Shown piece by piece: positions 16,273-44,107 of a stretch of DNA of 64,000 bases. Position numbers and translations under genes: made by a program. The stretch comes from Ferruginibacter sp. (GTDB lineage Bacteria > Bacteroidota > Bacteroidia > Chitinophagales > Chitinophagaceae), in contig JANMVB010000125.1 of NCBI GenBank assembly GCA_031392305.1, forward strand, positions 2,273-66,272, given 5' to 3'. The notes under the pieces are model-generated. The model was given only the letters and a program-made list of their open reading frames with translations, did not search any database and was not told the origin of the DNA. Positions within the stretch are counted from its first letter, which is position 1. The number at the start of each line of letters is the position of its first letter.

Positions 16273-16746
16273 TTAGTTCACCACCTTGTTGGCACAACTG
16301 CTGCTGGCAAAAGCCTCGGGCTTGGCTTTAAAAGCAAAGCCCATTCCCAGGATGTAACCCATGGCTTCCCTAAGTGCTTCGTTGCTTTTAAAATGAGGGT
16401 TGGTGTTAATGTCGGCATGTACTTCCATGTCTACATCATAGGTGGTAAAGAGGTCGCAGAGCTCATAAGCAATCTCGATGCTTTTAGCAACTTCAACCAG
16501 CATGCGTTCTTTAATACTGTACTTCAGCAATGTTTTTTCATTGTGAATAAACATAAAGCCTCCGTGACCTTCTCTTAAAAAAACAATTACTGTAGCAAAT
16601 TCAGTTTCCTTGCCTTTTACCTGGCTATCGGTACCGATGCATACTTTTAAATGATAGCCAGCTTTTGTTTCTCTTTTAATCGTTTCTTCCACCGCTTGTT
16701 TTACGGGTAGTTGAATGGGGTCGCCATTGAATTTTCTCCATATCAT
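16273..16746 (-). CDS. RNase H-like YkuK/DUF458 family protein
   Basis: IGTDSQ, EVAKSIE, EVHADIN, ASSSCANK motifs; ATG at 16746 preferred. Confidence 0.8.
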   Translation of the reverse strand: MIWRKFNGDPIQLPVKQAVEETIKRETKAGYHLKVCIGTDSQVKGKETEFATVIVFLREGHGGFMFIHNEKTLLKYSIKERMLVEVAKSIEIAYELCDLFTTYDVDMEVHADINTNPHFKSNEALREAMGYILGMGFAFKAKPEAFASSSCANKVVN

Positions 16747-35707: not shown

Positions 35708-36075
35708 ACTCGTAGTTTTTATAATTAATTATTTCATTATTAAATTAAAAAAGCAATTAATAGGATAAGTAATTTGTTACTTATTTAGCTAGCCGCACCA
35801 GGTAAATTTTGTGTTTATTCCAGACGTTGACTTGCCTGTTTTCGGTAGGAGTTATCGGAGATTTCGTTGATAAAATTAGCAGTTATTTTTATCAGGCAAG
35901 ATTAAGTAATTGTTTTGTTTGTGTTACATAACAACAAATTTCAAATAAACAAACTACTTTCATTTTCCAAATTAATACTCGAATTATTTTGTTGAGTATT
36001 GCTGTTGCTGCTGATGTAAAATCAGAACTCCTTACCCTTATAAATTACAGAGTTATTCGCAAATTGAAAGCGCTG

Positions 36076-36113
36076 CCATATATTCAAAAGTACAAGAGGG
36101 CGATGCAACGATG
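36076..36113 (-). repeat. REP-like element, copy 10 (GCATCGC subtype)
   Basis: GTACAAGAGGGCGATGCAACGATG core. Confidence 0.9.
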
Positions 36114-36463
36114 CTTATTCAGTGCTCAGTTGCCTGGACAAAAAAAAGAAAAGGTATGGGTTGTAGTTTGCGGTAAATCAGGAGTCTGAAAATATTGAAA
36201 AGGCACAGGTGAACTTTTATTTACAGGTTTTCCTTACTTAACTATACTGCCAGGGAGTATGTTGGATATGCTTTAGCAGAAAGACAAATATTATTTGCCA
36301 TAAGGGTATCTATAGGCAGGTAAAATAATATCGGCATAATTAAAAACAGCACGATAAACCAGGAGGGTAATTGCTATTTAAATAGTAAACATTTGGTGTA
36401 GTAATACCTTGTATGAATTATAATTAATTAATTGCCTGAATGTATTATGCCTGGCGTATAGGC

Positions 36464-36962
36464 AATAAAAAAAGGGCCAGCCCCTTACGCTGACCCCTTA
36501 ACTTACACATGAATCTACCTTACTATCTTTGATGTTATTTATTGAAATATTCCAATTCTATCTGTCAATATTTTCTTGATTTGTAATAGTAACAGTAAAA
36601 GCAATAAAAAGGGCCAGCCCTTACACTGGCCCTTAACTTACACATGAATCTACCTTACTGTCTTTATATCTTTCTTTTATAAGGGTTATGTTATTTGTTC
36701 TGCAATAGCTCCTTCTCTTATCTGTACCACTGTAAAGGGATGAATAAAATTTTAAAAAAGGACCAGCCCCTTACGCTGGCCCTTTAACTTACACATGAAT
36801 CTACCTTACTGTCTTTTAATTCTTTTATTGATGCTTTGTTAATTTGCCGGTTAATACATTTAATGCTTTTTGTTACTTTAAATGAGTACAGGTAAAATTT
36901 TAAAAAAGGACCAGCCCTTACACTGGCCCTTTAACTTACACATGAATCTACCTTACTGTTTT
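36464..36962. repeat. Four-unit array of ~62-bp repeats with unique 72-88 bp spacers
   Basis: Invariant TTAACTTACACATGAATCTACCTTACT at 36498, 36633, 36784 and 36931, each next to a GG(G/A)CCAG..CTG(G/A)CC hairpin and A-tract. Confidence 0.95.
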
Positions 36963-38539
36963 ATAATTCTTTCTGTTTGTTTTTCGTTGTTGCTTAATAG
37001 TTGCAATACATATATCCCACCCGGATACCGGCTCATATCAACTTCATTAAAACCTGGCTGCCCGTTTCCTTTTGCAATCATATTACCACCAATATTACTA
37101 ACCAGGTATTGGTAATTTTCCGCAGCCTTAATAGTCATTTTATTATTTATAAAAGTTGACACCTTGAACATTTTAGTATTAGCTAACGCAGCTTTCAACT
37201 GGATAGTATTTGAAAATGCGCTTTGATTTAGTATAGAAGTTACCTTAATACGGTAAAATAAATCGATGGTTTTAAAAGGTGCATAAGAAAGGCTGGTAGC
37301 TGCATTATTTACCGTATTCAAACTGGTAAAATGTACCCCATCTTCTGATAACTGTACCTCAATATTTTTTACAGGTTCATCAGCCACAATGGTCCATTTA
37401 AGATGATGTTTATTTTGATCAAGCCTGCCAGTGAGTAAAATATTATGTATGGGCAAAATCACTCCTTTGTTTACAGAAATAGTATATGAACCCAGGCTGC
37501 CATAATCTCCTACATTGCTGTTGCCTGCACCATCTATCAGCATATAATAGGAGCCGGTATTAAGTACTGTGTCTATTTCCACATTCATCATGGCAGCAGG
37601 ATCATATGTGCGTATTAATACTTTTGAAGCATTGTACAACGACAATTTTACATCAAGGTTAGCACCCAGGTAATTCGTGACAGCACTAAAAGGCTTTACT
37701 TCAATATGTAGTATGGAATTGGTGGCTAAATTAAAAGTGAAAGCATCCTTATCTGTATTTGTTGTTATTATGCCGTCAACATTTGTACCTGTTAATGGTA
37801 AAGTGCCAGGGTTAATATTTATATCATTGCTAAAATCATCGGGCCTGAATGAAAAGCCATTTTGAGTGGTAATGATGGATAAATTATCCTGCATGTTGGT
37901 ACATCCATAAGGAGTAGGGCCATTGTTCCAGCCACTCATATTTCTGTAATAGCTGTTGCCCATTATAGGTGCCCATGCATTTACCCCTGTGCCGGCGCCA
38001 TCATTGTAAGTTGCAGTTAAATTACAGGTGCCATCATATTTTGATTGGTGGGATAAGCCAACCGTATGTCCACTTTCATGTGAGCAACATTCGGCCACCA
38101 TTTTTGGACTGTTAGGCCCAAGGCGATCACAAAAAACAAATGCTGGTGTATCATCACCCCATTTAAATGAGCCCGTAAATGCAACACCTCCTACACCGTT
38201 AAACCAACTGCTGGTGGGTGTAATCACAATCCTTATCCTGGTAGAAAGCGGGGCTGCTAAAAATTTAGAAAGCTCAGTAGTTATATTGATATTGAATGGC
38301 CGGTAATCTTCTGATACCCGGTTAAATATTTCGGTGATTTGTGTATCATTAAGACCGGATGTAGCACAGGTAAAAGGCACGCCCCCATTCCAGTATGCAT
38401 TGTTTACATCATGCCCGTTAAAATCGAGATAGATGGTTGCAGTGGCTGTGGGCAGGCTATTTAAAACAGGCTGGCTAATTGCATTGAAAGAAACTAACAA
38501 TGCCAGTAACAGCATTAAGGGAGCGGATGGCTTCTTCAT
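36953..38539 (-). CDS. Zinc metalloprotease (metzincin-like) with T9SS CTD
   Basis: HESGHTVGLSH zinc motif, APIMG Met-turn, PPC-like and Ig domains, CTD. Confidence 0.85.
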   Translation of the reverse strand: MKKPSAPLMLLLALLVSFNAISQPVLNSLPTATATIYLDFNGHDVNNAYWNGGVPFTCATSGLNDTQITEIFNRVSEDYRPFNINITTELSKFLAAPLSTRIRIVITPTSSWFNGVGGVAFTGSFKWGDDTPAFVFCDRLGPNSPKMVAECCSHESGHTVGLSHQSKYDGTCNLTATYNDGAGTGVNAWAPIMGNSYYRNMSGWNNGPTPYGCTNMQDNLSIITTQNGFSFRPDDFSNDININPGTLPLTGTNVDGIITTNTDKDAFTFNLATNSILHIEVKPFSAVTNYLGANLDVKLSLYNASKVLIRTYDPAAMMNVEIDTVLNTGSYYMLIDGAGNSNVGDYGSLGSYTISVNKGVILPIHNILLTGRLDQNKHHLKWTIVADEPVKNIEVQLSEDGVHFTSLNTVNNAATSLSYAPFKTIDLFYRIKVTSILNQSAFSNTIQLKAALANTKMFKVSTFINNKMTIKAAENYQYLVSNIGGNMIAKGNGQPGFNEVDMSRYPGGIYVLQLLSNNEKQTERIIKQ

Positions 38540-38619
38540 TTTAGGTGGATTTTAGAATGCCGGAGGTAAGCCGGTGTTGTTTTTAATAAGGGTTGGATTC
38601 AGTTGTTTGCAAGCCGGTG

Positions 38620-39072
38620 TTAAAGGCTGCAGTCAGTTAAAATTTTTTCAACATTAATTTTATTTAGTTGGTAATTTCCGTTAGCGAGCCTTTTCAATTC
38701 AAAGCCATCAGCATAAGCCGGGTTCAGTATGCGGCCAACATAAGTAATTGTATTATTTTCTGTTTGTTTTGAAATTGAAAAAAGGCTGTTATCAAATGCA
38801 GGTAATTTTAAAACGAGTGTTTGGAGATTAGTATACGCTGCCCTTTTGCTGGTAACAGAACCTGATAGTATGAAGTTACCGGAAAGTGGTACCGCAATGT
38901 TTTCGCCTTTCGCCGCAGTAAATAATCTACTAAGCTGGGCTTCAGTAAAATCAATAGTGGAGGGAAGATTAGTAAATAGAGAAGACCTGCCGGCCTGTTT
39001 GTTTTGTGCATTTACTGATGCTGCAAAAAGGGTAAGCAGCACAAGGCACAAGGTAGTGGTAAGGATTTTCAT
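38620..39072 (-). CDS. Secreted hypothetical protein resembling a metalloprotease pro-domain
   Basis: Signal peptide; TYVGRILNP..DGFEL segment; lies directly upstream of the protease. Confidence 0.6.
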   Translation of the reverse strand: MKILTTTLCLVLLTLFAASVNAQNKQAGRSSLFTNLPSTIDFTEAQLSRLFTAAKGENIAVPLSGNFILSGSVTSKRAAYTNLQTLVLKLPAFDNSLFSISKQTENNTITYVGRILNPAYADGFELKRLANGNYQLNKINVEKILTDCSL

Positions 39073-39219
39073 GTTGTAGAATTTGGATATTGAAATACTA
39101 AAAATAAATAATTGATAGTACTAATATTTAAAACGGCGATTGCTGTAAAATAGTATGTAGTGCAACCAAAAAATACAACTGAATAATCAACGTAGAAGAT
39201 TTTCTACCCTTACAGGTTA

Positions 39220-42289: not shown

Positions 42290-44107
42290 TTAGTCAAGCT
42301 CAAGTTTCAAACGGTCCCTCAGCTCTTTTACAAGTGGATATTCCTCTATTATTTTAAGGTATTGTTGCTTCCTGTTTAATACAATTTCTGCAGGTGCCGT
42401 ATGCTCTTCCTGTTCTGTTACAATTACCTGGTACACTAATAACCGGTTGTTAAAATATTCCTGGAGGTGAGCCACCAGGTCGGCCCTTTCTACTTCAATA
42501 AAAGCTTTATGAATTTCTCCCCTGGTAATAATCTCCACGGTATTATTATCAATCACCCTTAATGCAGCCAGTTTAAAATTGGTAACTGCTGAATGGTTAT
42601 TTTTCTTTCTCAGCTTTTCGATGAACAAGCCCCAGGAAGCATGCAGGTCTTCTTCTGTAAGAATTTTCACTTCGGGCTCTCCTGCCCTGTTTTTAAGTGC
42701 AATCTGCTGGCGGATATTACTGAGCGAAGCAAGTCCTGTTCTTACATCCCCTCCAGCCTGTTGTGGTGAAGTAGTGGTAATGGGTGTTCCATTATTTTTA
42801 AAGGCTTGTTCCTTAACCGGCAGGGGTGGTTTTGCAGCCGGTTGTTGTATTATCAAGGTAGCTTCTGCGGATTTACTGTGCAGTTCCGGATTATTTGCAA
42901 TCGTAGTTCCCTCCTTTAATGCAACCGGCTGTATTGCCCTGAACGCAACTGTTTTTGCACCATCAATCAGTTTTTTTTTACTTACCACACCATCGTTGTT
43001 TACAAGTTCCAGCGCCTGCTGCAGGTAACTTAGTTTAATGATGGTGAGTTCAACATGTAACCGCTTGTTACGTGCCTGTTTATAATTTAGTTCGGCCTCG
43101 TTTAAAATATTTAAGGCACTGATAATATAGGCAGCCGAAATTTTTTGAGCAGTTTGTAAATATTTCTGTTTAAAGTCCTCGGCCACCTCAAGCAGCATCG
43201 CTACTTTAGCATCCCGGCTTACCAACAGATTGCGTAAAAATTCTGCAAAGCCATTCAGCACAAGGTCGCCTTCAAAACCTTTGCGGTTTATTTCGTCATA
43301 CATTAATAAGGCAGCCCCCAGGTCTTGTTGTTGCACATGGTCCAATAGCTTAAAATAATAATCTTCATCTAATATATTCAGGTGTTCAAGTGTATTTTTA
43401 TAAGTTACTTCACCACTGGTAAAGCTTACTATTTTATCCAAAATACTTAATGAATCCCTCATGCAGCCTTCACTTTTTTGGGCTATTACATGCAGGGCTG
43501 TTTTTTCAGCAGTGATGTTTTCTTTGCCGCAAATTTCCTGTAAATGTTCAACCGTATCATTATTGGTAATGCGTTTAAAATCGAAAATCTGACAGCGGCT
43601 GAGTATGGTAGGTAAAATTTTATGTTTCTCCGTAGTAGCTAAAATAAAAATCGCATAAGGTGGCGGTTCTTCCAGCGTTTTTAAAAATGCGTTAAAGGCA
43701 GATGCACTAAGCATATGTACCTCATCCACAATATATACTTTGTATTTACCAGCCTGTGGGGCAAAGCGCACCTGCTCTACCAGTGTGCGGATATCATCCA
43801 CAGAGTTGTTACTCGCCGCATCCAGCTCATGAATATTTAATGAAATGCCTGCATCGAAAGACACACAGCTATTACAGGTATTGCAGGCTTCTCCATCTTT
43901 GGATTGATTTTCACAATTAATGGTTTTCGCCAGTATCCTGGCGCAGGTTGTTTTGCCTACGCCCCTTGGTCCGCAAAATAAAAATGCATGTGCAAGCTGG
44001 TTATTTTTTATAGCATTTTTTAAGGTAGTGGTAATATGTGCCTGCCCCACCACAGTAGAAAAATTCTGCGGCCTGTATTTGCGTGCTGATACTATGAATT
44101 TATCCAT
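42290..44107 (-). CDS. dnaX: DNA polymerase III subunits gamma/tau
   Basis: ARKYRPQ, GPRGVGKTT, ELDAASNNSVDDIR, LKTLEEPP, SRCQ motifs. Confidence 0.95.
   Translation of the reverse strand: MDKFIVSARKYRPQNFSTVVGQAHITTTLKNAIKNNQLAHAFLFCGPRGVGKTTCARILAKTINCENQSKDGEACNTCNSCVSFDAGISLNIHELDAASNNSVDDIRTLVEQVRFAPQAGKYKVYIVDEVHMLSASAFNAFLKTLEEPPPYAIFILATTEKHKILPTILSRCQIFDFKRITNNDTVEHLQEICGKENITAEKTALHVIAQKSEGCMRDSLSILDKIVSFTSGEVTYKNTLEHLNILDEDYYFKLLDHVQQQDLGAALLMYDEINRKGFEGDLVLNGFAEFLRNLLVSRDAKVAMLLEVAEDFKQKYLQTAQKISAAYIISALNILNEAELNYKQARNKRLHVELTIIKLSYLQQALELVNNDGVVSKKKLIDGAKTVAFRAIQPVALKEGTTIANNPELHSKSAEATLIIQQPAAKPPLPVKEQAFKNNGTPITTTSPQQAGGDVRTGLASLSNIRQQIALKNRAGEPEVKILTEEDLHASWGLFIEKLRKKNNHSAVTNFKLAALRVIDNNTVEIITRGEIHKAFIEVERADLVAHLQEYFNNRLLVYQVIVTEQEEHTAPAEIVLNRKQQYLKIIEEYPLVKELRDRLKLELD

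Follow-up and report, generated by a model that had tools for sequence, protein, structure and literature searches.

Why does a 27-bp sequence stand four times, letter for letter the same, behind a single protease gene, when three of the four copies are attached to no gene at all? The question is raised by a 64-kb stretch of Ferruginibacter DNA (hereafter the window, meaning the whole stretch that was analysed). Our answer, to which we give a little more belief than doubt, is that the repeat represents a new family of small RNAs derived from a 3'UTR, amplified in tandem and probably exerting feedback on its own operon in the manner of OppZ and CarZ. That the repeated module is a selected RNA element we conclude with high confidence.

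The array and its parent operon

The 27-mer TTAACTTACACATGAATCTACCTTACT had been reported to occur four times, and exact matching finds it on the plus strand at just those places (Table 1), with periods of 135, 151 and 147; zero occurrences are expected by chance. Allowing up to three mismatches adds no match in the 64-kb window, and 100 shuffles gave none either. Read on the minus strand, each unit has the shape of an intrinsic terminator, as the original prediction had it: the core is followed after 0–1 nt by an 8-bp GC-rich stem, a GUAAGG(G) loop and 5–7 U. It is also true that GTAAG occurs three times per unit, that the fourth unit lies over the stop codon of the protease (TAA at 36953-36955, within core 4), and that loop variants pair units 1 and 3 and units 2 and 4, with flank variants pairing units 1 and 2 and units 3 and 4. 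Similar GUAAG-type motifs recur every ~17 nt, with three GUWAG motifs per unit, one of them in the loop.

One claim about the array had to be given up. The spacers were described as unique and fully diverged, yet the ~20 nt in front of each core are the protease's final codons, copied and decayed; the protease reading frame ends in ...ERIIKQ*. In one case the decayed tail is aaaagaattaaaagac, to be compared with gaaagaattataaaac in the protease itself. Weak mutual similarity also remains between the spacers (z 2.5–3.1).

Unitigs assembled from DNA reads of two runs of a freshwater-sediment study (X1 and X2) contain spacers 2 and 3 completely and spacer 1 in part, which does not fix the order of the units. 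The region flanking unit 1 from below (36187-36500) also occurs in two sediment runs of a separate study (X3 and X4), as does a protease 3' end in variant form; in these runs, at a coverage of only ~3x, none of the three spacers (36525-36920) is present. The absence of the spacers from X3 and X4 means that the copy number of the array may differ between populations.

Table 1. Parent genes, repeat units and predicted pairing sites (window coordinates)
Feature	Position	Strand	Description
p150, first operon gene	38620..39072	-	150-aa signal-peptide protein without family match
Protease, parent gene	36953..38539	-	528-aa secreted zinc metalloprotease, HESGH motif, T9SS type A sorting domain
Core copy 4	36931..36957	-	AGUAAGGUAGAUUCAUGUGUAAGUUAA; gene-attached, protease stop TAA inside
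Terminator, unit 4	36902..36929	-	stem GGGCCAGU / GCUGGUCC, 36922-36929 with 36908-36915; loop GUAAGG; U6 at 36902-36907
Core copy 3	36784..36810	-	no gene; preceded by decayed protease tail aaaagaattaaaagac
Terminator, unit 3	36754..36782	-	stem 36775-36782 with 36760-36767; loop GUAAGGG; U6 at 36754-36759
Core copy 2	36633..36659	-	no gene
Terminator, unit 2	36606..36632	-	stem 36625-36632 with 36611-36618; loop GUAAGG; U5
Core copy 1	36498..36524	-	no gene; last in RNA sense
Terminator, unit 1	36467..36497	-	stem 36489-36496 with 36474-36481, one U-G wobble; loop GUAAGGG; U7
Predicted pairing site 1, p150 start	39058..39079	-	CUACAACAUGAAAAUCCUUACC; AUG at 39070-39072; -17.0 kcal/mol, in silico
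Predicted pairing site 2, just past p150 stop	38584..38616	-	..CUGAAUCCAACCCUUAUUA; -18.4 kcal/mol, in silico

The protease shares its operon with p150, and the two are always paired. Synteny is kept throughout, in the order E2 dehydrogenase, MarR, DCC1-like, CoA-binding, p150, protease, module, DUF458. In most other species the DUF458/RNaseH-like gene follows 150–350 bp behind the module; in the window it lies at 16276-16746 on the minus strand, ~20 kb from the array. The segment in between encodes several paralogous T9SS-sorting-domain proteins (363, 373, 286 and 967 aa). Since other species lack this ~20-kb segment with its T9SS paralogs, the array stands at the edge of a lineage-specific insertion. 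A role of the module as leader of DUF458 was rejected, because DUF458 has a conserved promoter-like box of its own and is 20 kb away in the window.

Three smaller observations concern the surroundings. First, ~750 bp past the array (35708-36464) hold no minus-strand ORF of at least 60 aa, and a perfect Bacteroidota -7 box, TACTTTTG, lies at ~36092 on the minus strand, ~385 nt upstream of the next gene; the stretch may be a long leader or another non-coding transcript. Second, the whole p150-protease pair is duplicated in tandem in a Chitinophagaceae MAG (L057:3505-7878; L numbers denote our loci), with one module each, and the two modules differ in the hairpin and at the 3' end of the core. 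Third, a short palindromic element, for example CCCCAACCCCCUGAAGGGGGCUUU, stands 10–40 nt after the terminator in L009, L011, L012, L033, L053 and L055. Many species have it just behind the module, L055 as an inverted pair, and it has the appearance of a dispersed repeat of the REP type.

Conservation of the core and a hairpin selected as RNA

The module is not confined to this assembly. More than 100 Ferruginibacter/Chitinophagaceae genomes and metagenome contigs have it at the stop codon of their ortholog of the 528-aa T9SS metalloprotease, and these orthologs are only 51–70% identical. An exact-match scan for the 27-mer, with one genome per species, gave 54 stretches, nearly all from Ferruginibacter, Ginsengibacter or Chitinophagaceae/Chitinophagales, and in nearly all loci the core adjoins the stop codon of the orthologous protease. 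Two chromosome-level assemblies (OZ251999.1 and OY730416.1) have one module locus each, and two MAGs gave two 27-mer stretches each, on separate contigs. No core was found in viral contigs.

This first sample required the exact core. A second one was drawn by protein alone and comprises 80 metagenomic protease orthologs with 51–67% amino acid identity; GTAAGGTAGATTCATGTGTAAGT stands at the stop codon in ~68 of these 80 loci (~85%). When 71 distinct loci are anchored at the stop, the commonest base reaches a frequency of 0.82–0.93 at the non-coding positions +3 to +21, without a 3-nt periodicity, as against 0.3–0.5 at codon third positions further upstream. Hence, the 3'UTR is far better conserved than the synonymous sites of its gene. 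With 23 invariant nucleotides next to a host protein that drops to ~50% identity, the module is among the most conserved non-coding sequences of the clade.

One could argue that the core is conserved as an extension of the protease, reached by stop-codon read-through or frameshifting. We rejected this idea because the core is kept when the stop codon moves (TAG in L055, CTG-TAA in L109 and its relatives) and is kept in copies that have no gene.

The hairpin behind the core was assessed for covariation on 73 distinct units. Almost all cells (99%) are paired and compensatory changes are seen at six of the eight pairs, a result that 500 shuffles never matched; slid registers of the alignment are all much worse. 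Two stem positions hold 22 G-U and 38 U-G pairs, which on the plus strand would be A-C mismatches. Since such wobble pairs fit the minus strand only, the hairpin is an RNA hairpin on the minus strand and is selected as such. The loop, GUWAGG, is constant while the stem changes. The core itself is predicted by folding to be unpaired and without structure.

The strand of the hairpin bears directly on whether the repeat could work as DNA, be it as an iteron, as an attachment site for a recombinase or integrase, or as the operator of a transcription factor. A single locus in the complete genomes examined is what one would see for a dif or att site, and the place of the array at the edge of ~20 kb that other species lack also speaks for a DNA site. 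However, the core has no dyad or arm symmetry, the adjacent hairpin is selected on one strand only, and there is neither a second copy at the far end of the 20-kb segment nor a rep or integrase gene nearby. The lack of matches in viral contigs and a spacing of 135–151 bp, which is not iteron-like, add to this. We regard a DNA-level site as very improbable, and we reject the iteron-like site that had been proposed, since the wobble pairs are evidence of an RNA and each genome has a single locus.

A more serious alternative is an RNA that binds a protein, as decoy, sponge of the CsrB/RsmZ type or recruitment site. GUAAGG, GUAAGU and the loop GUWAGG would amount to three sites per unit and 12 per array, amplification would raise the titration capacity, and a candidate partner could be, for example, an RRM-type protein like RbpB of Bacteroides. 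The retention of GUWAGG in a covarying stem fits such binding, as does the ~17-nt spacing of similar motifs, and full invariance over 23 nt exceeds what most base-pairing seeds need. RbpB-bound families of multicopy small RNAs do exist in the phylum (PMC11697453). Against this, only one motif of the three is placed in a loop, some clades have a changed second motif (GAAAG, GUAAC), the loop motif is missing in L057 and L084, and the stretch between the motifs is as invariant as they are. Protein binding would also leave the complementarity to the operon starts described below unexplained, though both could hold. Overall we find protein binding unlikely. Among the functional options put forward in the original prediction, a multi-copy small RNA fits best, and a protein titrator is possible.

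Copies without a gene

If the module mattered only as the end of a protease mRNA, its copies should not matter where there is no protease. Gene-less tandem copies occur in ~25 loci from at least two clades, in arrays of 2–4 units with a period of 103–151 nt; in the clade of the window, where protease identity is 66–70%, there are 2–4 copies. The copies in the first 54 loci are exact in 75 cases, have one mismatch in six and two in one, and none has three to six. A search with a covariance model added three or four clearly divergent variants and no more. Over all loci, 35 of the 39 distinct extra copies contain the exact 22-nt core and four have one mismatch, and the flanks of these copies reach a consensus of only 0.40–0.64. 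Within arrays, the hairpins of different copies are set apart by changes that compensate each other (AGU/ACU, AAC/GUU) and lie only a few bases away from a core that does not vary, which argues for selection on each copy and against homogenisation by gene conversion.

Gene loss gives a second view of the same question. In L012, L047 and L026 (one clade) and in L021 and L033, p150 and the protease have been deleted from the syntenic site, and all five loci keep a coding remnant, the core and the terminator. Between L012 and L026 the coding remnant has diverged and the core and hairpin are identical. In one MAG a second-locus copy lies behind a ~200-nt fragment of a sorting domain (L005 and L017; also L046). 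The non-coding core is under purifying selection, and this includes the gene-less copies and the loci that have lost the genes. The central claim of the original prediction, that a 3'-end RNA module was amplified and kept under selection, is borne out by the stop-codon position in ~85% of the 80 loci, by the covarying hairpin of the minus strand and by gene-less copies that keep the core as their flanks decay.

Could the module nevertheless be purely a cis element at the 3' end of the protease mRNA, serving stability, 3' processing, termination or an icaR-like pairing between 3'UTR and 5'UTR? The extra copies would then be by-products of slippage, kept alike by gene conversion. The first copy always adjoins the stop codon, the duplications include the coding tail, as unequal recombination would give, and complementarity to the operon's own 5' regions would fit pairing in cis as well. 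We think this doubtful, more so than protein binding, for the following reasons. First, the core is exact where the genes are deleted and the coding remnants diverge, as between L012 and L026. Second, the gene-less copies keep the core and a compensated hairpin and differ from their neighbours within 1–10 nt, which is hard to obtain with conversion tracts. Third, the arrays persist through speciation in two clades.

The least credible explanation is that the copies are neutral remnants of the 3' ends of deleted paralogs, or else small genes for peptides or toxins (plus-strand MNLPY..., minus-strand MCKL...). A decayed coding tail is indeed present in every extra copy, and tandem duplication of the whole gene pair is seen in L057. 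But neutral decay should not leave copies that are bimodal, either exact or a clearly different variant, nor an invariant core beside decayed flanks. As for peptides, there is no conserved ORF on either strand. An A indel between core and hairpin shifts any minus-strand frame, the plus-strand peptides run from 5 aa (MNLPY*) to ~15 aa with unrelated tails and variable ends, and in the extra copies the protease frame meets stop codons just upstream. We give next to no credence to this pair of readings and reject both neutral decay and peptides, including the type I toxin peptides that had been suggested.

Several other kinds of repeat were tried and rejected. A CRISPR array does not agree with a repeat of ~60 nt that includes a terminator, with spacers that are mutually homologous coding remnants, or with the protease and T9SS proteins as neighbours. 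The antitoxin RNA of a type III toxin-antitoxin system (ToxI-like) does not agree with a period of 135–151 nt and a terminator in every unit, and no ORF of at least 60 aa follows on the array strand for ~750 nt. A dispersed repeat of the REP or MITE kind would not be limited to one locus in each of OZ251999.1 and OY730416.1 and to this one place in the 64-kb window. Guide RNAs of a dCas12f-sigmaE system are set aside because each unit varies in its 5' part and lies beside the protease and genes for T9SS proteins.

The loci can be arranged in a series: module attached to a gene, gene-less tandem copies, sole survivor after gene loss, and copy at a second locus. This comparative series documents steps from a 3'UTR to a free-standing small-RNA gene.

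The divergent variants deserve a remark of their own. The last unit of two arrays (L007:2807-2876 and L024:2429-2498) is such a variant, CAGUUCGGUAGAUUUCUAYCRGUUAG with a different terminator. Its core can fold on itself into a small stem-loop (GGUAG-AUUU-CUAYC), in which the two species differ by a compensating change, and the variant may be a sub-functionalised sibling.

Predicted pairing and known small RNAs

What might a small RNA of this kind act on? Duplexes with the core were scanned over ~70 loci, and same-strand matches cluster at two sites of the module's own operon, the start codon of p150 and the intergenic leader between p150 and the protease. At the p150 start, CAUGAA-(3 nt)-CCUUAC of the mRNA is predicted to pair with GUAAGG-(UAGA)-UUCAUG of the core. 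The site in the intergenic leader reads UGAAUCCAACCCUUAU in the clade of the window and CUUACACA or ACCUUACU elsewhere, near the protease AUG. The predicted duplex at site 1 of Table 1 falls in the best 1.7% of scanned windows and that at site 2 in the best 0.4%; site 2 recurs in the clade of the window.

Mean duplex energy is -12.8 kcal/mol at 88 p150 starts and -12.5 kcal/mol at 100 protease starts, compared with -9.3 kcal/mol at 648 other ORF starts. Shuffled cores do as well in two of 400 cases for the p150 starts and in one of 400 for the protease starts. The residue at codon 3 of p150 varies (H, T, R, I, Y, Q, N), yet the codon ends in C in 67 of 88 loci (background 23%), and Leu4 is CTT in 32 of 46 (background 20%). 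These two biases mean that CCUUAC is conserved at the nucleotide level. CCTTAC is 7–10 times as dense in leaders as in coding sequence. Exact CCTTAC lies at most 40 nt from either start codon in 31 of 84 core-bearing loci (~37%) versus 1.9% of random windows. Four loci lack the core and have a p150 start that can be read, and none of them has CCUUAC at that start. The pairing was noticed post hoc, and these various counts are not independent since the start regions share descent.

The complementarity between the core and its operon's start regions is significant and suggests either OppZ/CarZ-like feedback, in which we have moderate confidence, or cis pairing like that of icaR. Feedback on the own operon cannot be the sole role, however, since the module is retained after loss of the operon, which implies other targets. 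The best trans match in the window (-23.6 kcal/mol, near 43999) lies inside the dnaX coding sequence and was treated as chance.

We propose the following mechanism for the small-RNA family. The unit consists of an unstructured, near-invariant stretch of 23–27 nt (AGUAAGGUAGAUUCAUGUGUAAGU) and a Rho-independent terminator with the conserved GUWAGG loop. It would have arisen as the 3'UTR of the p150-metalloprotease operon and be the working part of a small regulatory RNA of ~55–60 nt. In the clade of the window, the segment from the last codons to just past the terminator was duplicated in tandem, up to the four copies seen here. The RNA may be freed from the operon mRNA or from transcripts that read through the array, and its GUAAGG...UUCAUG would pair with CAUGAA...CCUUAC at the p150 start codon and in the p150-protease leader, with negative feedback on the producing operon as the probable result, as for OppZ and CarZ, and it probably has other targets too. 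We infer the existence of discrete small RNAs, the way in which the extra copies are transcribed and the effect of the pairing. The predicted pairing can be tested directly in cultured Ferruginibacter strains; F. paludis CECT 8366, Ferruginibacter sp. SUN106 and SUN002, and F. profundus have the module.

The module does appear in metatranscriptome contigs from ice, freshwater and sludge. These contigs are of low depth and unstranded, some extend beyond the terminator, and they give neither ends, strand nor abundance. As to promoters, no clear Bacteroidota -33/-7 promoter was found in the spacers: TTTG...TAnnTTTG is absent from spacers 3 and 2, before unit 1 there is no better than a 5-of-6 match (TAGAATTG at 36560), and sigma-70-type matches in the spacers are at chance level. 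With no promoter recognised, copies 1–3 would need either read-through of strong terminators or a promoter of an unrecognised kind.

Rfam 15 gave nothing at gathering score in the whole window. The weak matches by E-value to STnc430, GibS and MicX rest on the terminator only; for GibS/FopS (RF04182) the score is 23.1 bits against a gathering score of 115, and the alignment consists of the terminator and AT-rich sequence. We found no description of such an RNA in these bacteria in the literature, and none for Chitinophagaceae. Two marks of 3'UTR small RNAs known elsewhere are found here: the module, whose core begins at the stop codon, closes with the intrinsic terminator of the mRNA, a covarying hairpin plus U-tract, and the non-coding 3'UTR is conserved beyond the neutral rate of the adjacent gene.

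The closest parallels to the proposed mechanism are OppZ and CarZ of Vibrio cholerae, which are reportedly derived from 3'UTRs and regulate their own operons. As in these RNAs, the terminator is shared with the operon, a conserved single-stranded seed lies just upstream of the hairpin, and pairing is predicted with translation starts inside the same operon. Unlike them, the module belongs to a Bacteroidota host, has no sequence relation to either, has been amplified into gene-less tandem copies and outlives its parent genes, and its processing and feedback are predictions. To our knowledge, Bacteroidota have no Hfq. CpxQ and DapZ are single-copy 3'UTR small RNAs of enterobacteria, and DapZ was noticed because its 3'UTR is more conserved than the synonymous sites of the gene. 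The module resembles them in its predicted size of ~55–60 nt, in having seed and terminator right behind the stop codon and in a 3'UTR conserved above synonymous sites; it differs in being multi-copy, in lacking homology and in having no known chaperone. The icaR mRNA of Staphylococcus aureus, in which 3'UTR and 5'UTR pair in cis at the Shine-Dalgarno sequence, likewise has a 3'UTR stretch complementary to the translation start region of the same transcript. The icaR element acts in cis, however, and in contrast to the module is neither separate nor amplified.

For tandem arrangement the best comparison is LhrC1-4 of Listeria (review PMC4211561), which reportedly have their own promoters and pair through CU-rich motifs with Shine-Dalgarno sequences. 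Both systems have near-identical units head to tail with their own terminators (four here, 2–4 in ~25 related loci) and a short motif repeated in single-stranded stretches and in the terminator loop. The module differs from LhrC in its motif, GUAAGG, in an array that comes from the 3' end of a gene and in the lack of recognised promoters. Within the phylum, FopS/GibS of Bacteroides are dispersed in 12–14 or more copies per genome, are transcribed from sigma-ABfr promoters and target susC-like mRNAs (PMC11697453). They too are a family of paralogs, and their conserved seed is unpaired and binds close to start codons (such binding being predicted for the module); one FopS/GibS member is derived from a 3'UTR. 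They show no sequence match to the module, whose copies are in tandem whereas those of FopS are dispersed.

How far might the role of the module extend? More tentatively than for the small-RNA family as such, and at somewhat less than an even chance, we suggest an undescribed riboregulator of Chitinophagaceae: an operon 3'UTR turned into an independent gene that acts via GUAAGG on CCUUAC-bearing starts, in its own operon and probably in other mRNAs for secreted proteins. If true, one could see in it how a 3'UTR gives rise to a small-RNA gene. We know of hardly any regulatory RNAs in Bacteroidota outside gut Bacteroides, and Chitinophagaceae are abundant in soil, freshwater and activated sludge.

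A further motif was seen in the leaders. The 5-mers AATCC and ATCCA are 12–15 times enriched 5–25 nt upstream of p150 and protease starts relative to coding sequence (~90 loci; in the window at ~39075-39095 and 38545-38560, minus strand), and this leader motif is possibly general to the translation start regions of the family.
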